Shown here: positions 3,008 to 11,533 of the stretch, piece by piece
Numbering within the stretch: the stretch's first letter is position 1
Layout: each line of letters starts with the position of its first letter
Source of the DNA: Blastocatellia bacterium
GTDB taxonomy: Bacteria; Acidobacteriota; Blastocatellia; UBA7656
Assembly: GCA_035709445.1 (NCBI GenBank)
Contig: DASTET010001092.1
Coordinates: forward strand, 1 to 11,930
DNA: 11,930 bases
Direction: 5' to 3'
Notes under the pieces: generated by a model
Told to the model about the DNA's origin: nothing
Database searches by the model: none
Seen by the model: only the letters and a program-made list of their open reading frames with translations
Position numbers and translations under genes: made by a program

Positions 3008-4132
3008 TTGCGTTTTTATATCGAAAGGTCTGCGGCGACGGTTCTGCTGGTAGCGGTCTGCGCCCTTGCTGTCGGGTGCGATCGGGGAGAAGAGAAGCGG
3101 TATGACTTGAAGGGCAAAGTGGTCAGCGTCGATAAGAGAGGCTCGACCGTGACCATCGCTCACGAAGAGATACCGGGCTACATGGAAGCGATGACCATGC
3201 CGTTCAGGCTGAAGGATGAATGGGCGTTCGACAAGCTGGCTCCAGGCGATCAGGTGACGGCGACGCTCGTAGTCCGAGGCGACCGCTCGTGGATCGAGGG
3301 CATCGTCTTCAGCCGACAAGAGCCGATTCCGGAAGGCGAAGCATCACCGGCAGCTTTGAATGAACCCGCGCCGGGCAGTGAAGTGCCCGGATTTTCGCTT
3401 ACGAATCAGGACGGCAAGCGCATAGACTTCGAGAAGTATAAAGGGCGGCCCCTGGTCGTAACATTCATCTATACGAGGTGCCCGGTCCCGGATTACTGCC
3501 CGTTGATGAGCGAGCGATTCGCAGAGATCGATAAGGCCATCAAGAAAGAGCCTCAGCTTTACGGTCAGGCGCGACTCCTGAGCGTCACCGTCGACCCGGA
3601 GTTCGATACGCCGGATGTGCTCAAGGCTTATGGGTCGGCCTTCACCGATCCCGCATTTCAGCACTGGGAGTTCGCCACCGGCACGCGCGACGAGATCAAG
3701 AAAGTGGCGGGCTATTTCGGCATGCAGTACTGGCCTGAAAAGGGCGAGATAATACACTCGCTTCGGACTGCGCTGGTCACGCCGGAAGGAAGACTCTTCA
3801 AGCTGTACCGTGGCAACGAGTGGAAGTCGGCGGAAATCCTCGCCGACCTCGAAGCCATGCGAGGCCAGGCGACGGCCGATCAACCGCAGCCCGGTAAGAG
3901 CGCCGTAAAGTCCTACAGCGGTGTAGGGGTGGTCGAGGAGATCGACAGGCAGATGGCGACCGTGCAGATCAATCACGAGGACATAAAAGATTTCATGCCT
4001 GCAATGAGCATGCCTTTTGCAGTGCGCGACAAAAGGCTGCTCGACGCGGCGCGGCCCGGCGACCGAGTGGAGTTCTCGGTCCACGCCGATGCTTCGGGCA
4101 TGGTGCTGGTTGCGTTAAAGAAGAGGGAATAA
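3008..4132 (+). CDS. Lipoprotein copper chaperone: SCO1/SenC thioredoxin-fold domain flanked by N- and C-terminal CusF-like Cu(I)-binding domains
   Basis: TTG start preceded by GGGAGG. Lipobox LAVGC. Two CusF-like H...M-x-M-P-F motifs (TIAHEEIPGYMEAMTMPF and INHEDIKDFMPAMSMPF; compare E. coli CusF ITIHHDPI...WPEMTMRF). Central SCO1 C-x3-C (CPVPDYCP) with the downstream conserved His (IIHSLRTALVTPEGRLF). Confidence 0.85.
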   Translation: MRFYIERSAATVLLVAVCALAVGCDRGEEKRYDLKGKVVSVDKRGSTVTIAHEEIPGYMEAMTMPFRLKDEWAFDKLAPGDQVTATLVVRGDRSWIEGIVFSRQEPIPEGEASPAALNEPAPGSEVPGFSLTNQDGKRIDFEKYKGRPLVVTFIYTRCPVPDYCPLMSERFAEIDKAIKKEPQLYGQARLLSVTVDPEFDTPDVLKAYGSAFTDPAFQHWEFATGTRDEIKKVAGYFGMQYWPEKGEIIHSLRTALVTPEGRLFKLYRGNEWKSAEILADLEAMRGQATADQPQPGKSAVKSYSGVGVVEEIDRQMATVQINHEDIKDFMPAMSMPFAVRDKRLLDAARPGDRVEFSVHADASGMVLVALKKRE

Positions 4133-5649: not shown

Positions 5650-5692
5650 GACAGGATTAACAGGTCTTTTTGTACGACCTGTTAATCCTGTC
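5650..5692. terminator. Perfect 17-bp palindrome (GACAGGATTAACAGGTC, 9-nt loop tttttgtac) at the junction of convergent genes. Candidate bidirectional terminator or protein-binding palindrome.
   Basis: Left arm 5650-5666; right arm 5676-5692, an exact reverse complement. The right arm contains the last three codons and the TAA stop (5682-5684) of the minus-strand 157-aa gene. No clean U-tract follows on either strand. Confidence 0.5.
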
Positions 5693-6155
5693 CGATGACG
5701 CTGTACTCGACCGACCCGTCCTTCAGCGAATCCGCAAAGTACAATTCGACGCGCCTGCCTGAGAAGCGCTCCAGGAGCGCCTTTCGCGCCCTCTTCAGGT
5801 TCGCGATCTGCTTCTGATTGAACTCCGGCTCGGTGAAAAAGTACTGCACACTCTCTTTGAAGAAGAGACAGTCGTCGTGCCCTACGAGCACGATCTCGGG
5901 CGACCGGGTGCGCTTGAGAAGAAAAGAGAGCGATTGCAGGTTGACCTTGAAGAACTTGGGCATCAAGTGCTCGAGCGTGACGAAGTGGCCGCCGCCCGGC
6001 ACGGCTTGCAGCGCGTAAGACGACAGGCGCAGCCCTTCGGTCAGGAACTCGTGAAACCCGGCCTGAAACCGGTGATCGCTGCAATGGATGACCACCGCCT
6101 CCGAGGTCGCGTCTTCCAGTCTGGCCTTTGATATGTAGATGGTCGGGGCTTTCAT
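5682..6155 (-). CDS. Small soluble hypothetical protein with a beta-carbonic-anhydrase-like metal-ligand pattern (C25-x-D27-x-R29 ... H93-x-x-C96); last gene of the NfeD-flotillin operon
   Basis: 157 aa, high GC3, no TM segment. VVIHCSDHRF resembles the beta-CA motif (...CSDSRV) and IVLVGHDDCLFF resembles the beta-CA motif (...VxGHxxCG), with 68-residue spacing (beta-CA about 56). An overlapping alternative-frame ORF (5614-6198) is Arg-rich and was rejected. Confidence 0.7.
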   Translation of the reverse strand: MKAPTIYISKARLEDATSEAVVIHCSDHRFQAGFHEFLTEGLRLSSYALQAVPGGGHFVTLEHLMPKFFKVNLQSLSFLLKRTRSPEIVLVGHDDCLFFKESVQYFFTEPEFNQKQIANLKRARKALLERFSGRRVELYFADSLKDGSVEYSVIGQD

Positions 6156-6174: not shown

Positions 6175-6233
6175 CCGCAGAGGAGCGCAGAGGATCAATA
6201 ATGATCAAAATAACCTCTGCGCCCTCTGCGCCC
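6175..6233. repeat. Intra-operon inverted repeat between the flotillin gene and the small downstream gene. Arms are built from GCAGAGG units; the loop is 20 nt and AT-rich.
   Basis: Left arm ccgcagagg-a-gcgcagagg (6175-6193) pairs with cctctgcgccctctgcgg... (6214-6231), giving 17 bp with one bulged A. Loop atcaataatgatcaaaataa. On the minus-strand transcript the stem is followed by uugaauauuuuua and then the start codon of the 157-aa gene. Confidence 0.5.
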
Positions 6234-6261: not shown

Positions 6262-7860
6262 CTAATCCAACCGCTCAATCGATTCGGAGGAGACCTTCGT
6301 GGCGCGCTCAGCCGGGATCGCCGTGGCTGCGTCCGCGCCGGTCTTGATGCCGAGCTGCTGCATCATGGTCGGGATATCGAGGCCGAGCGCCTCAAGCTGC
6401 TGTAGCAGCCCGAAGATGACGGACGGGGCGGTTGAGGCGAAGCGACCGACTCCGCTCTGTCCGTGGCCGTTGCCGTTTCCCTGCTCGATGACTACTACCT
6501 TGTCGATGTTGCCGAGCGGGGCAGCGACCGCGCCGAAGACGGGGGCGGAAGCCTGAAGGATCGACGGCAGCTTCTCGAGTATAGTCTGGAGCCGCGCCGC
6601 CTCATTGAACTCTTTCCACGCATCGGCCTTCTTCAAGATGGCGTTCGCTTCGGCAAGCCCCTGCGCTTCTATCGCCTTCGCCTGCGCAAGCCCCATAGCT
6701 TCGATCTTTGCGGCTTCGGCCCGGCCTTCGGCCTCTATAGCTGCGGCGCGACCTGCGCCCTCTTTCTTGAGCCGCTCCTGCTCGGCCTCGGCTATAGCGA
6801 TGAGCGAAGCCTTCTTGCCTTCGGCTTCGAGTATGGCGGCCTGCTTGGCGGCCTCGGCTTTCAAGACGGCTGCCGTTCGCGCGGCATCGGCGGGCTTGAC
6901 GACGGTTGCTTCAAGCTCTTTTTCGCGCCGGAGAATCTCCTGTTCTTGAACGGCGATCTGCTCCTGGGTGCGAATCCTTTCGATGCGGACCTCTTCGGCC
7001 ACGACCGACTGGCGGGCTTTGGCCGACGAGAGCGGGCCGGACTGGTCCGCCGTCGCGCGCTCTTTTTCTACTTCTGCCTGATACTGGGCCTTTTTGACTT
7101 CGAGGTCGCGGTGCGCGAGCGAGATATTGGCCTCGGTGTCGAGCTTGACCTTTTCGCCCTCCTGCATGGCGAGGCTCGACTGAATCTTCGAGTCGCGCAG
7201 GGCTTCGGCCTCGCCGATCTGCGCATCGCGTTTGACTTCGGCGGTCCTGCTTTTTCCGAGCGCGTCGAGATAGCCCTCCTCGTCGCTTATCTCCTGGATC
7301 GTGAGCACGTCGACGCCTATGCCCATACGCTCGAGGTCGGTTGTGGCCTCGCTCGTCAGCTTCTGGGCGAAGCTCTGGCGGTCATTGTTTATCTCTTCGA
7401 CCGTCAGCGTGCCGAGTATCGCGCGGAGGTGGCCTTCGAGGGTCTGAAAGATGACGCGCTGCACCTCCTGAAGCGACATGCCGAGAAAGCGTTCGGCAGC
7501 CGCCTGTAGCGAGATGTCATCGCTTTTGATCTTGACGTTGGCGACGGCCTTGACCGAGACCGGCACGCCTTTGAGCGTGTAGGCGCGGCGTATCTCAAGC
7601 GGTATGGTCACGACGTTGAGCGCGAGGTAGTCGACCTTTTCAAGTAGCGGTATTCGAAGGGCCGCGCCTCCCTTGATTATGCGGTAGCCGACCACGCGCC
7701 CGTCCGGGAGCTTGCGCTTGCGGCCCGAAAAGACCGCCGCAGCGTTGGGCGGCACCTTTATGTAGTTGCGCGAGATCACTGACATACCGATAAAGAATGT
7801 GATGACGATGACCGCCACAATCAGAATTATCAATGGCCATTGATTTCCTAGAATATCCAT
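6262..7860 (-). CDS. Flotillin-like SPFH/band-7 protein (FloT/YuaG type)
   Basis: 532 aa. N-terminal membrane anchor (WPLIILIVAVIVITFFIGMSVI). SPFH domain, then a long coiled-coil with Glu/Ala-rich flotillin repeats (AEAEQERLKKE...AIEAEGRAEAAKIEA...). C-terminal tail. Confidence 0.9.
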   Translation of the reverse strand: MDILGNQWPLIILIVAVIVITFFIGMSVISRNYIKVPPNAAAVFSGRKRKLPDGRVVGYRIIKGGAALRIPLLEKVDYLALNVVTIPLEIRRAYTLKGVPVSVKAVANVKIKSDDISLQAAAERFLGMSLQEVQRVIFQTLEGHLRAILGTLTVEEINNDRQSFAQKLTSEATTDLERMGIGVDVLTIQEISDEEGYLDALGKSRTAEVKRDAQIGEAEALRDSKIQSSLAMQEGEKVKLDTEANISLAHRDLEVKKAQYQAEVEKERATADQSGPLSSAKARQSVVAEEVRIERIRTQEQIAVQEQEILRREKELEATVVKPADAARTAAVLKAEAAKQAAILEAEGKKASLIAIAEAEQERLKKEGAGRAAAIEAEGRAEAAKIEAMGLAQAKAIEAQGLAEANAILKKADAWKEFNEAARLQTILEKLPSILQASAPVFGAVAAPLGNIDKVVVIEQGNGNGHGQSGVGRFASTAPSVIFGLLQQLEALGLDIPTMMQQLGIKTGADAATAIPAERATKVSSESIERLD

Positions 7861-7869
7861 CGTACCCTC

Positions 7870-8469
7870 CTATGCCGGGTTATTCGGCTTGAACAAATAG
7901 ACGCCGTCGGCCTTATCTGTTTGAAAGAGGCTGACGATCACGCCATCGCCTGTGATCTCTTCGATCCTCACCAGCGAGTTATAGGGGATCTCGAAGCCTT
8001 CGCGCGAGCGGGCTATCTTTTCAACCATGCTCTCGCCCACCAGACAGCGAACCTGCCCAAAGCCGTTATTCGGGATCGCAACGGTCACCTGCGCGGTCAG
8101 CCCTACGAGGTCCGAAGAGGTGATAACGCTCGTCGCCTGCTGCGAGTAGAGCAGGCGGGCGAAGAAATAGACCGCCGCGCCGAGCGTCACGCCGCCCGCA
8201 AGCCCCAGAGCGGTGCTTGCGAAGACGCCCAGGCCCTGATAAATCCCGATGGCGCCGAACCCGCCAAAAGCGGTGATGAACACGCTGATGACCTTCGTGT
8301 TGAAAAAGCTCGGCCCGTCGTGGCCTATATCGTGGTCTATGTCATGATCGAACTCGAAATGCTCGAATATCTCGCCGAAGACAAGCGTCACGAGCAGGAA
8401 CAGGAACCCTATTGCCCCTATGGCAAGAAAGACCGAAGAGGCGCTGATCTGAGAAAGCCATTCCAACAT
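7870..8469 (-). CDS. Short NfeD-like membrane protein (YuaF type), with a His/Asp-rich insert
   Basis: 199 aa. GGAG RBS 10 nt upstream. Hydrophobic N-terminal half with 3-4 predicted TM segments. C-terminal OB-fold-like beta domain (GQVRCLVGESMVEKI...RIEEITGDGVIVSL). Lies 9 nt upstream of the flotillin gene, the classic NfeD-SPFH pairing. Insert EHFEFDHDIDHDIGHDG lies between TM1 and TM2. Confidence 0.8.
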   Translation of the reverse strand: MLEWLSQISASSVFLAIGAIGFLFLLVTLVFGEIFEHFEFDHDIDHDIGHDGPSFFNTKVISVFITAFGGFGAIGIYQGLGVFASTALGLAGGVTLGAAVYFFARLLYSQQATSVITSSDLVGLTAQVTVAIPNNGFGQVRCLVGESMVEKIARSREGFEIPYNSLVRIEEITGDGVIVSLFQTDKADGVYLFKPNNPA

Positions 8470-8622: not shown

Positions 8623-9540
8623 CTATTTCGAGGGGTCGGGCCGGGGTTTGAGGCTTTCGATGAAGTCGCGGTCTTTCGTCCCGGCGTGGCAGACTATGCA
8701 GGACTGCTGGCCGCGCTCTTCGAGGTCCGACACGAGCCCATAGGTCAGGCCGCGATCCGACCAGGTGATGACCTTTAGCCCCTCGATGGTTTCGTAATGA
8801 AAGGTGAGTCCCTTCGAGGCGATCTCTTCTCCGCCGCGCGGCGTGGCCACCCGGTCCGAGGTGACTACGAGCGTGATCGGACGGCCCTGCATCTGATAGG
8901 CGATATAAGCCGCATAATCATTCTTGAATCCGACCAGCCGCGCGCCTTCGATCTCGTAGAGCTTCTCCTGCCCGGATGTCTTCTGGTAATCCGGCAGCAC
9001 TAAACTGAACGAGACCTTTCCCGCAAACCAGCGCGACACCTCGTCGGGCGACCCGGAAGTGATCTCGAACGGGAGCTGGCCGCGCAGGTGGCGGAGGTGA
9101 GTATCGACGGCCATTATCGCAAACTCTGAGGTAAGCGAGGGCGGCGCGAGCGCAGGACGCCGCGCCGCGTACCAGAGCGCCGCTGCGATGATGAAGACGG
9201 CAACGGTGGCGAGCGCGAAGACCCGTCGGCCTTTCAGACTGAAGGGGGCGGCGGTCTTCCATAAAGACTTCTGCACGCGAGTCCGCAATTCGGGCGGAGC
9301 GGCATACACGGGCGGCGCATCGCTCAGCACACGCTCGGACTTCGCGCGAAGCTCGGGAGGCGCGGTATAAATCGGACGGGCCCGGCGTATGCTCTCGATG
9401 AACTGCCGCTCATCAGATACCATCTGCTCGCACGAACGGCATTCGGCCAGGTGCGCTTCGAATCGGGCGAGGTCCGAGCCGCTCAACTCGTCGTCGAGAT
9501 AGAAGGCTATCCGAGAGCGTATGTCGTCACAATAATTCAT
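8623..9540 (-). CDS. Transmembrane ZAS-type (zinc-finger HC2) anti-sigma factor with a periplasmic C-terminal domain ending in a CxxCH haem-c binding motif
   Basis: Start chosen at ATG 9540 (MNYCDD...). It forms an ATGA overlap with the stop codon of the upstream ECF sigma gene. ZAS signature C...H-x3-C-x2-C (FEAHLAECRSCEQ). Single TM helix (VFALATVAVFIIAAALWYAA). About 165-aa periplasmic domain. CIVCH is encoded at 8686-8700. The six-frame ORF extends to 9654, but the upstream extension is Arg/Gly-rich and lacks an RBS. Confidence 0.8.
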   Translation of the reverse strand: MNYCDDIRSRIAFYLDDELSGSDLARFEAHLAECRSCEQMVSDERQFIESIRRARPIYTAPPELRAKSERVLSDAPPVYAAPPELRTRVQKSLWKTAAPFSLKGRRVFALATVAVFIIAAALWYAARRPALAPPSLTSEFAIMAVDTHLRHLRGQLPFEITSGSPDEVSRWFAGKVSFSLVLPDYQKTSGQEKLYEIEGARLVGFKNDYAAYIAYQMQGRPITLVVTSDRVATPRGGEEIASKGLTFHYETIEGLKVITWSDRGLTYGLVSDLEERGQQSCIVCHAGTKDRDFIESLKPRPDPSK

Positions 9541-10109
9541 GCTTCTTTGGCCCGCATCGGTTTTCCCGCCGCTTCGGCCTGCCACTGACTGAGCAGCGAT
9601 CTCAGTTTTTCTCGCGCCCGTCCGAGCCGCGACATGACGGTCCCGGCGGGGCATCCCAGGATTCCGGAAATCTGCTGATAGCTGAAGCCTTCAAGGTCCC
9701 TGAGCACGATCACTTCGCGGTACAGCCGGGGAAGGCTTTCAATGGCGGCCCTTACCTCTTCGCGCTCTATCTTTCTAACAAAGACCGTATAAGGGTTGCT
9801 TGCAAGGCTGTCGAGCCATTCAGCGCGGCCCTCTTCTTCCTCATCCAGCTCGACAAATCGCGGGCCGCTACGCGCGTGGCGGAGCTGGTTGAGCCAGATA
9901 TTTCGGCAGATGGCAAACAGCCAGCCTTTCAGATTGCTGTCAGGCATGAGCTGACCGAAGGCCCTCACGGCCCGCAGATAGGTCTCCTGCACAAGGTCTT
10001 GAGCTTCGGCCTCATTGCGCGCAAGCGCCATGGCGTATCCGTACAGCGCATCGATATGCTCGATTGCCGCCTGGCGAAAGTCCACGCTGTCGCCTTTATT
10101 CTCGCTCAT
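9537..10109 (-). CDS. ECF (group IV) RNA polymerase sigma-70 factor
   Basis: Region 2 (DLVQETYLRAVRAF...WLFAICRNIWLNQLRH) and region 4 (REVIVLRDLEGFSYQQISGILGCPAGTVMSRLGRAR) are present. Start chosen at ATG 10109 (MSENKGD...), giving 190 aa, typical for ECF factors. The longer ORF to 10214 adds a hydrophobic non-homologous extension. The stop overlaps the anti-sigma start (ATGA). Confidence 0.85.
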   Translation of the reverse strand: MSENKGDSVDFRQAAIEHIDALYGYAMALARNEAEAQDLVQETYLRAVRAFGQLMPDSNLKGWLFAICRNIWLNQLRHARSGPRFVELDEEEEGRAEWLDSLASNPYTVFVRKIEREEVRAAIESLPRLYREVIVLRDLEGFSYQQISGILGCPAGTVMSRLGRAREKLRSLLSQWQAEAAGKPMRAKEA

Positions 10110-10206
10110 GATGAGCCCTGCGCCGTTGTAAAGGGCGCATAATAATAACACATGACCTCTTAAATTATTCCCTCCGCGCCCGAATAAATTCACCGGCGTG
10201 AGTGCC

Positions 10207-10233
10207 GTCACCATTCGAGGTGACTCGTGTCAC
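10207..10233. promoter_or_regulatory. Overlapping palindromes GTCACC-N6-GGTGAC and GTGAC-N4-GTCAC in the divergent sigma/CCP intergenic region. Candidate operator.
   Basis: gtcaccattcgaggtgactcgtgtcac read directly from the sequence. About 100 nt upstream of the ECF sigma start and about 145 nt upstream of the CCP start. Confidence 0.3.
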
Positions 10234-10375: not shown

Positions 10376-11533
10376 ATGAAAAACAGACTACGCAATATAA
10401 AGCTGCTGCTGATTGCTGCGGCGACTGTTTTTGTCGTCATAAATCTTCTTCCCGTCACGGGGGTCGCCCAGAAAGAGAAATACAAGCCGGACCTGCCCCC
10501 GGCAATCCCGGCTGATCTATGGGAGATGCTCATCCCCGAAGACAATCCCATGACCGAAGCCAAGATCGCTTTAGGACGCGACCTCTATTTCGACAAGCGT
10601 CTTTCAGTAGATAACACCGTGAGCTGCGCGACCTGCCACGATCCGAAGACCGCTTTCGCAGAATCGAAGATCGTCGCCGAAGGGATAGGCGGCAAGAAGG
10701 GCGCGCGCAACTCTCCCACGGTCCTCAATGCGATGTTCAACGTCGAGCAGTTCTGGGATGGCCGCGCAAAAACGCTCGAAGAACAGGCCAAGGGGCCGCT
10801 CACGAACCCCTTAGAGATGGGCATGCCCTCGCACGACGCGGTCGTCGATCGGGTAAAACAGGCGCCCGACTATGTGAAGCGGTTCCAGGAGGTGTTCGGC
10901 GGCCCGGTCACCATCGACAACATTGCCAAGGCTATAGCCTCTTTCGAGCGCACGCAGCTTTCCGGCGATTCTCCGTTCGACCGTTTCAACGCTGGCGATA
11001 AGTCCGCCATAAGCGCCGAAGCCCAGCGCGGGTTCGAGATATTCAAGGGCAAGGGCCGCTGTATAACCTGTCACGAGTTCAACGCCTCTTCGCCTTTCTT
11101 CACTGACTTCAAGTACCACAATGTCGGCGTCGGAATGAAAGCGACGAAGAACTTCGAATCGCTCGCCCGGCAGGTCCAGCAGATGGCTCAGCAGCAGCAG
11201 CTCACCGCCGAATCTTTGGACCAGCTTTCGCTCAGCGAAGGGTTCTCCGAGCTTGGCAGGTTCCTCGTCACGCGCGAGCCGAAAGACGTAGGAGCATTCA
11301 AGACGCCTCCGCTACGCGACATAGAGCTGACCGCTCCTTATATGCACGACGGCAGCCAGAAGACGCTGCGCGAGGTCATAGACTTTTACAACAAAGGGGG
11401 CGAGCCGAACCCCAATCTCGACGGCGGGATTCGCAAGCTCGATCTCACAGACCAGGAGATAAGCGACCTGGAAGCGTTCCTGAAATCATTGACCAGTGAT
11501 CGCGTTCGCAAACTAGTGTCTGGCGAGTCGTAA
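10376..11533 (+). CDS. ccp: Di-haem cytochrome c peroxidase (CCP/MauG family), secreted
   Basis: Signal peptide MKNRLRNIKLLLIAAATVFVVINLL. Two CxxCH motifs (CATCHDP, CITCHEF). Family signature TAPYMHDGS. Conserved FWDGRA and PLTNPLEMG segments. A Gln-rich insert (QVQQMAQQQQLTAESLDQLS) lies between the haem domains. Confidence 0.9.
   Translation: MKNRLRNIKLLLIAAATVFVVINLLPVTGVAQKEKYKPDLPPAIPADLWEMLIPEDNPMTEAKIALGRDLYFDKRLSVDNTVSCATCHDPKTAFAESKIVAEGIGGKKGARNSPTVLNAMFNVEQFWDGRAKTLEEQAKGPLTNPLEMGMPSHDAVVDRVKQAPDYVKRFQEVFGGPVTIDNIAKAIASFERTQLSGDSPFDRFNAGDKSAISAEAQRGFEIFKGKGRCITCHEFNASSPFFTDFKYHNVGVGMKATKNFESLARQVQQMAQQQQLTAESLDQLSLSEGFSELGRFLVTREPKDVGAFKTPPLRDIELTAPYMHDGSQKTLREVIDFYNKGGEPNPNLDGGIRKLDLTDQEISDLEAFLKSLTSDRVRKLVSGES

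Follow-up and report, generated by a model that had tools for sequence, protein, structure and literature searches.

The nfeD-floT-CAL locus

The window analysed in this study is a stretch of 11,930 nucleotides (nt) from a Blastocatellia bacterium (contig DASTET010001092.1, assembly GCA_035709445.1), in which a gene that we name CAL follows an nfeD gene and a flotillin gene on the reverse strand. CAL (positions 5682..6155) starts with ATG, encodes a protein of 157 amino acids (aa) with a predicted beta-carbonic anhydrase (beta-CA) fold at the edge of the Pfam family PF20393, and closes the nfeD-floT-CAL module. The flotillin gene, floT (6262..7860, reverse strand), is of the FloT type (SPFH2), and its product of 532 aa has an N-terminal membrane anchor, a Band_7 domain and an Ala/Glu-rich coiled coil. 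This protein matches Pfam Band_7 (E=1.9e-24) and Flot (E=8.8e-5), and the NCBIfam FloT model with 338 bits (E=1e-100), which is under the 700-bit equivalog cut-off. The nfeD gene (7870..8469, reverse strand), whose end is 9 nt upstream of floT, encodes an NfeD2/YuaF-like membrane protein of 199 aa that has an OB domain at its C-terminus. No Pfam match was obtained with the NfeD-like protein alone; an alignment of it with its counterparts from related loci (alignment A2) gave a profile that matched YuaF (2k14, E=4e-7) and the stomatin operon partner 3wwv, and eight of the 11 A2 members matched PF01957 NfeD. These matches agree with the first-pass annotation of this DNA, which had placed the small gene co-directionally behind NfeD and a FloT-type flotillin. 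It had also called the genes tightly packed, which is true of nfeD and floT, but floT and CAL are separated by 106 nt that hold a strong hairpin.

The same annotation had recognised in the 157-aa open reading frame the residue pattern of beta-CAs, and the codons of the five residues were read directly in the window DNA. The first predicted zinc ligand and the Asp-Arg dyad lie in C25-S-D27-H-R29 (6069..6083, reverse strand), at the end of strand beta1, with C25 at 6081-6083 (gca, reverse complement tgc), D27 at 6075-6077 and R29 at 6069-6071. The second and third predicted ligands lie in H93-D-D-C96 (5868..5879, reverse strand), at the end of strand beta3, with H93 at 5877-5879 and C96 at 5868-5870. 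The contexts of the two motifs, VVIHCSDHRF and IVLVGHDDCLFF, are those given in the annotation. A further motif, P53-G54-G55 (5991..5999, reverse strand), is specific to the CAL family and comes straight after strand beta2. As judged by eye, CAL has no hydrophobic N-terminus, and it is therefore expected to be cytoplasmic. The protein had been described as about 60 aa shorter than canonical beta-CAs; this holds against chains of ~200-230 aa (E. coli Can has 220 aa) but not against the minimal beta-CAs, whose solved chains have 164-171 residues (6jqc, 1g5c, 6lac).

The sole public contig found to encode exactly the window CAL is a Logan contig of 2.5 kilobases (kb) (SRR36068199, locus L001), whose flanking FloT and PQQ genes are 100% identical to those of the window at the protein level (tblastn). 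The next-nearest CAL relative (P0001, JGI) is 96% identical, and the best long contig among the relatives is Ga0073934_10007880 (CAL 73%, FloT 91%). The NfeD-like protein of the window carries a His/Asp-rich loop, HFEFDHDIDHDIGHDG, at about residues 34-52, after the first hydrophobic segment. The loop has the consensus GHDHDxxHDxxHD in A2, is present in NfeD partners from several phyla, and shows a weak low-complexity match to PA4063 (7ahw, E=0.51). The loop may bind metal, which is intriguing beside a putative zinc protein.

Family membership and residue conservation

The best profile match of the window CAL is PF20393 (Pro_CA_2), which covers nearly the whole domain (residues 20-142 on model positions 6-116 of 125) with 22.2 bits and E=1.8e-4; the NCBIfam scan of CAL gave no matching model. 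A word-indexed search returned 75 homologues, all labelled 'hypothetical protein' and many of them with a precomputed PF20393 annotation, and an exhaustive profile search found 1,902 representatives of the family, clustered at 50% identity, at E<=1e-3. We aligned 31 CAL sequences with identities down to 28% (alignment A1). PF20393 was matched individually by 29 of these 31 homologues at E<=0.01, and PF00484 was reached at the same threshold by two; divergent relatives score 33-49 bits against PF20393. The window CAL itself scores below the gathering cut-off of 30 bits, so that its Blastocatellia-like clade sits at the edge of the PF20393 model; its membership, which the score does not establish, is clear from the family context. 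The likeness to beta-CAs is in itself not new, since Pfam already catalogues PF20393 as 'putative carbonic anhydrase'.

In A1, the five residues C25, D27, R29, H93 and C96 are invariant, which indicates that the CxDxR/HxxC pattern is not due to chance; their conservation in homologues, on which the first-pass annotation had staked its interpretation, therefore holds in the close family. Also invariant are F37, L38, L42, P53-G54-G55, F78, D95 and Y139. The conservation across the whole family was assessed in 144 sequences (143 cluster representatives and the query). In this set the zinc triad is nearly universal (Cys25 99%, His93 99%, Cys96 100%), the P53-G54-G55 motif is kept at 86%, 99% and 88%, respectively, and F37 at 96%. 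The P53-G54-G55 motif has no obvious counterpart in canonical beta-CAs, and an aromatic pair at positions 98/99 is, like F37 and G54, a family-specific conserved feature outside the canonical set. Position 97, which precedes the aromatic pair, is A in 29%, G in 26% and R in 14% of the family. The family consensus after the second motif is H-[DEQ]-D-C-x-[WF]-[YF], with LFF in the window clade, where canonical enzymes have HxxCG(G/A).

Predicted fold

An AlphaFold2 model of CAL, built on its alignment, has a predicted local distance difference test score (pLDDT) of 94.7 and a predicted template modelling score (pTM) of 0.87, with five strands and six helices. In the model, strands 20-24 and 87-93 precede the zinc ligands, and strand 47-51 precedes the PGG motif. 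The predicted fold is the alpha/beta fold of beta-CAs, a mainly parallel sheet with flanking helices, in line with the structural similarity that the first-pass annotation had proposed as a test of its interpretation.

When the CAL family profile was compared with the sequences in PDB, beta-CAs ranked best, with CsDhR placed on CSDSR and HdDC on HTDC of yeast Nce103 (3eyx). The single CAL sequence gave noise only (E>=0.097) in the same database, and beta-CAs emerged only with the family profile. Alignment of the CAL family to the single sequence of E. coli Can by hhalign covered 24 columns around HxxC with a probability of 10% and placed H93/C96 on His98...Cys101; this comparison serves register and not homology, and the Can sequence used is identical to PDB 1i6o. 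Canonical beta-CA genes were also sought in the fetched CAL loci for a profile-profile comparison, and none was present there.

Linkage of CAL to flotillin genes

To survey the neighbourhood of CAL, 160 related loci were collected from genome and metagenome collections, and the window FloT and NfeD were located in them by tblastn. At least 2 kb of upstream DNA was available in 111 loci. In 89 of these, CAL is preceded on its own strand by a FloT-type gene, whose end lies within 700 nt of CAL in 78 loci (adjacent) and within 3.3 kb in another 11; in the other 22 none was found. Upstream DNA was shorter than 2 kb in 49 loci, and in 30 of them the contig edge still carries the end of a flotillin gene. 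The distance from the floT stop to the CAL start, in 108 adjacent pairs, has a median of 14.5 nt; 16 pairs overlap and 38 are within 0-20 nt, a spacing typical of translational coupling. The linked loci belong to bins labelled Acidobacteriota (several orders), Ca. Xenobia, Bacteroidota, Planctomycetota, Verrucomicrobia, Gammaproteobacteria and three candidate-phyla-radiation groups; the labels span at least seven phyla and can be wrong. The linkage of homologues to SPFH/NfeD genes, which the first-pass annotation had likewise named as decisive, is therefore found in most loci. All-against-all clustering of the neighbours revealed FloT (position -1) and NfeD (position -2) as the sole recurrent neighbours of CAL, and identity to the window proteins correlates between CAL and its neighbours FloT (r=0.59) and NfeD (r=0.68).

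Read by eye, the genes upstream of unlinked CAL genes resemble those for aldo-keto reductase, response regulator, histidine kinase, GGDEF protein, threonine synthase and the like. The unlinked members are scattered over the neighbour-joining tree, for which reason the linkage looks ancestral, with repeated escapes. Of five divergent representatives with informative context, two with long N-terminal extensions (P0101 and P0093) come directly after a Band_7/Flot gene, and in P0203 the order is Flot, one intervening gene and CAL, with NfeD upstream; P0211 and P0146 show no flotillin link.

Several other explanations or additions were considered and discarded. Hidden SPFH proteins in unlinked loci were looked for by reading ten upstream neighbours by eye, without a Pfam scan, and these were unrelated genes. 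A conserved fourth gene was dropped, as the genes downstream of CAL vary. A role in defence was not supported by PADLOC models, which gave no match to the three module proteins at E<=0.01, and a mobile or viral origin was discarded, with no CAL relatives in viral contigs or plasmids. No fusion of CAL to flotillin or NfeD was seen among the best 150 representatives; the single apparent fusion, of 564 aa (P0085), seems to be an artefact of a frameshift, with a molybdopterin oxidoreductase attached.

Some family members carry N-terminal extensions of 90-300 aa, with no confident Pfam match among those scanned. They comprise P0093, P0115 and P0147 (424-444 aa), P0100, P0105, P0110 and P0148 (313-332 aa), P0101 and P0162 (~266 aa), with weak similarity to an ATP-synthase-b-like coiled coil, and P0114 and P0117 (228-246 aa). 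Such extensions could be docking segments. In some Blastocatellia relatives (L004, L005, L090 and L123) a gene of ~455 aa, which by eye has an apparent signal peptide and is amidohydrolase-like, is inserted between floT and CAL, and the CAL start abuts its stop in three of the four loci.

Proposed role of CAL and alternative explanations

Overall, the first-pass observation and its interpretation are supported by our data. We are largely confident of the combination of fold, metal site and functional coupling to flotillin. The fuller proposal, that CAL is a cytoplasmic, minimal zinc protein of beta-CA fold and of the Pro_CA_2 family, and that it works with flotillin as the third member of the nfeD-floT-CAL module, is one that we believe slightly more than we doubt.

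According to this proposal, one predicted zinc ion would be held by Cys25, His93 and Cys96, with Asp27-Arg29 as the putative catalytic dyad. CAL would be cotranscribed with flotillin in many genomes, probably with translational coupling, and would act at or on the flotillin assembly at the inner face of the membrane, the cytoplasmic side being where the SPFH domains of bacterial flotillins and the OB domains of NfeD lie. A zinc-bound water would be activated there for the interconversion of CO2 and bicarbonate (plus a proton) near flotillin, or for the hydration of a closely related small molecule. Because all five beta-CA residues are intact in the window organism, CAL probably interconverts CO2 and bicarbonate; carbonic anhydrase activity specifically is nevertheless a putative function, to which we give a little less than an even chance. 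The tight co-translation and the persistence of the pair without NfeD suggest a direct association of CAL with FloT. CAL would presumably dimerise and touch FloT physically. It might buffer protons or bicarbonate (pH/CO2) locally at flotillin domains, provide a client with bicarbonate or take it away, or act in sensing.

A number of observations weigh against this proposal. The window CAL, with its 22.2 bits, is below the gathering cut-off of PF20393 (30 bits), and against PF00484 it scores 16.1 bits (E=0.014, with residues 69-126 alone aligned), missing the threshold of 25.7 bits. The Gly that follows HxxC is missing (HDDCLFF), as the first-pass annotation had noticed for the usual GG, and so are the N-terminal arm helices of canonical beta-CAs. 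On these profile and motif data CAL is not filed as a canonical beta-CA, since it is below the PF00484 threshold and has no glycine after HxxC. About 20% of the CAL loci have no flotillin link. In the window itself, an RNA hairpin stands between floT and CAL (6176..6230, reverse strand), formed by three GCGCAGAGG units and followed by UAUUUUU, and all three copies of GCGCAGAGG present in the window fall within it. Its centroid structure has -35.9 kcal/mol with a z-score of -3.6, and none of 200 shuffled sequences folds equally well; an Rfam search of the window for a known RNA element in the spacer gave no match. The hairpin may act in attenuation or partial termination, or it may be a repeat element that was inserted. 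Because the spacer of the closest relative (L082) has just 21 nt, the hairpin has the appearance of a recently inserted element or of an attenuator confined to this locus.

The remaining points against the proposal come from the dyad, and they bear also on the alternative that survives best, although we judge it rather unlikely. According to this alternative, CAL is a non-catalytic zinc-thiolate partner or sensor, whose retained beta-CA fold serves as a Zn(Cys2His) module for binding or regulating flotillin. It might, for instance, be a switch that responds to redox state, zinc or CO2/bicarbonate, or an adaptor for clients, and CO2 hydration would not be its selected function. The residues that define beta-CAs are the three zinc ligands and the Asp-Arg pair, the latter being needed for the full catalytic rate; work by Smith and Ferry on Cab reportedly established this requirement and the conservation of both triad and dyad across canonical beta-CAs. 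In the 144 CAL sequences, Asp27 is kept in 88% and Arg29 in 85%, against 99-100% for the triad. A motif census of 120 flotillin-linked CAL genes showed that ten have lost Asp and/or Arg and kept Cys...His-x-x-Cys, and the replacements differ (HCSSSLY, HCSTAPF, HCSEAAF, LCSEAHY, HCSAARM), so that the dyad was lost more than once. The dyad is dispensable in ~12-15% of the CAL lineages, which keeps alive the non-enzyme or metal-sensor alternative of the first-pass annotation. One lineage (L054, L057, L058, L061 and L062), in which the dyad is gone (HCSSSLY or HCSTAPF) and no NfeD gene is present upstream of floT, retains a CAL start that overlaps the floT stop by 20-47 nt. This pattern suggests that what is universally selected in the family would be the metal site and the pairing with flotillin, and not necessarily catalysis.

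A zinc-thiolate partner would also agree with the conservation of F37, G54 and the aromatic residues 98/99 outside the canonical set. Flotillin/NfeD of S. aureus reportedly stabilises stress-unfolded proteins and is needed for resistance to oxidative stress (PMC11222466, PMC13086221), a role that would suit a thiolate-zinc switch. Against this alternative, the full catalytic set is under obvious purifying selection in the window CAL and in ~85% of the lineages, with which a purely structural zinc site is hard to reconcile, and the dyad-less members could be derived pseudoenzymes. Taking the residue patterns on both sides, catalysis is probably retained in most lineages, the window's included, and dispensable in some.

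Less probable still is a stronger form of the coupling to flotillin, in which CAL would be a dedicated flotillin client, docked to or enclosed by a dome of FloT, with or without NfeD, at the cytoplasmic face of the membrane; we give it little credence. This form would be compatible with the FloT-CAL pairing that outlasts the loss of NfeD and of the dyad, and with the N-terminal extensions of some relatives, a few of them weakly coiled-coil-like, as possible docking segments. According to Tan et al. (2024) and Fu and MacKinnon (2024), both cited in PMC13086221, SPFH proteins form closed cages, whether or not an NfeD partner is present. In one version of this idea, the SPFH cage would be a small membrane-attached reaction chamber for the handling of CO2, bicarbonate and protons; in another, the Cys2His zinc site would work as a switch through which the scaffold is informed of redox, zinc or CO2 status.

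It is also very unlikely that CAL is an enzyme of beta-CA fold that acts on something other than CO2, for instance on a small heterocumulene like carbonyl sulfide or carbon disulfide. Finally, an unrelated small gene lying by chance behind floT, with a fortuitous motif and an operon that ends at the hairpin, would fit the 106-nt spacer, the strong hairpin followed by a U-rich run and the 22 of 111 unlinked loci, but it is effectively refuted by the linkage and spacing data, that is, the same order and strand in 89 of 111 loci with at least seven phylum labels and often overlapping stop and start codons, and it is also at odds with the invariant motif residues and the predicted beta-CA fold.

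Other features of the window

A perfect inverted repeat of 17 base pairs with a 9-nt loop (GACAGGATTAACAGGTC / GACCTGTTAATCCTGTC; 5650..5692) has arms that are 100% complementary and a folding energy of -34.4 kcal/mol (z-score -7.7). It overlaps the stop codon of CAL, where this gene and the PQQ beta-propeller gene converge, and probably serves both genes as a terminator at the end of the operon.

The other genes of the window were identified by eye. Directly upstream of nfeD are genes for an ECF-type sigma factor and a zf-HC2-like anti-sigma factor (8623-10214, reverse strand). Regulation by this pair as a trait of the family was discarded, as the pair is kept upstream in the closest relative L082 only. 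On the forward strand are genes for a large outer-membrane protein resembling TonB-dependent receptors, with a carboxypeptidase-regulatory-like part (81-2921), a lipoprotein with a thioredoxin-like core of the SCO1/SenC type (3008-4132) and a di-haem cytochrome c peroxidase-like protein with two CxxCH motifs (10376-11533). Genes for these sigma and anti-sigma factors and for the cytochrome c peroxidase also occur near an unlinked CAL in two loci (L002 and L084), from which flotillin is absent.

Implications

The case for CAL rests wholly on sequence, predicted structure and gene context. Bacterial flotillins and NfeD proteins are widespread, their biochemical role is vague, and their known operon partners give few clues. 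A third gene that is conserved, often overlaps the gene before it and codes for a predicted zinc site like that of an enzyme is a concrete, testable handle on them, and it raises the question of whether flotillin organises CO2/bicarbonate/proton chemistry or is regulated by a zinc-thiolate switch. Were CAL a client held by a flotillin dome, a widespread class of bacterial flotillins would gain its first defined biochemical activity. For the carbonic anhydrase field, the data delineate a minimal subfamily of predicted beta-CA fold, with ~1,900 clusters at 50% identity, that is uncharacterised in the literature searched. Its dyad is less strictly conserved than its metal triad, so this subfamily may include both enzymes and pseudoenzymes. 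Uncultured Acidobacteriota are the main source of CAL family members, and others occur in bins that carry the labels Bacteroidota, Planctomycetota, Verrucomicrobiota or candidate phyla; this bias to uncultured groups may explain why the family was overlooked.

Comparison with known systems

A search of open-access papers for PF20393 or Pro_CA_2 gave no paper naming the family, and only papers on the lanthipeptide ProcA2 surfaced. A search, likewise of open-access papers, for flotillin, SPFH or NfeD together with carbonic anhydrase gave no bacterial module, and carbonic anhydrase goes unmentioned in a recent survey of SPFH proteins in P. aeruginosa (PMC13086221). In the literature searched, neither the nfeD-floT-CAL module nor the stricter conservation of the triad relative to the dyad appears to have been reported.

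The window shares with the NfeD2-SPFH2 operons (B. subtilis yuaF-floT(yuaG)-yuaI and E. coli yqiJ-yqiK) the order of nfeD before flotillin and their tight coupling (9 nt). The B. subtilis operon also has a third gene after floT, and the YuaF structure is matched by the A2 profile of the NfeD family. According to Hinderhofer et al. (2009), the third gene yuaI is found in B. subtilis only, additional genes having been omitted from their figure for clarity (PMC2636767). Unlike yuaI, the third gene of the window codes for a protein of predicted beta-CA fold and recurs in bins labelled with many phyla. The first-pass annotation had already set CAL apart from yuaI, which is annotated as a GNAT acetyltransferase, and this distinction is borne out by the predicted fold and by the Pfam matches of CAL at E<=1, which include no acetyltransferase family.

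Proteins with a divergent beta-CA fold are also known from carbon-concentrating mechanisms (LCIB/LCIC and the carboxysomal CsoSCA); they are much larger and multi-domain, and have no SPFH link. No carbon-concentrating context was seen around CAL in the neighbour clustering. A conceptual parallel, which is not evidence, is offered by stomatin and the anion exchanger AE1, with which a carbonic anhydrase of the alpha class is associated. Stomatin modulates AE1 in erythrocytes, so that an SPFH scaffold is coupled to bicarbonate handling (PMC5383999); this system is eukaryotic, involves no operon and has no homology to CAL.

The closest comparison is with the minimal beta-CAs of the Cab type, M. 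thermoautotrophicum Cab (1g5c, a chain of 169 residues) and A. fumigatus CafC/CafD (chains of 164-171 residues), to which CAL has 12-18% identity. CAL would work like these enzymes and is their remote relative. Unlike them, it is below the PF00484 threshold and, in this clade, has no glycine after HxxC, and the CAL family has PGG and aromatic-pair motifs of its own and a dyad that is not universal.

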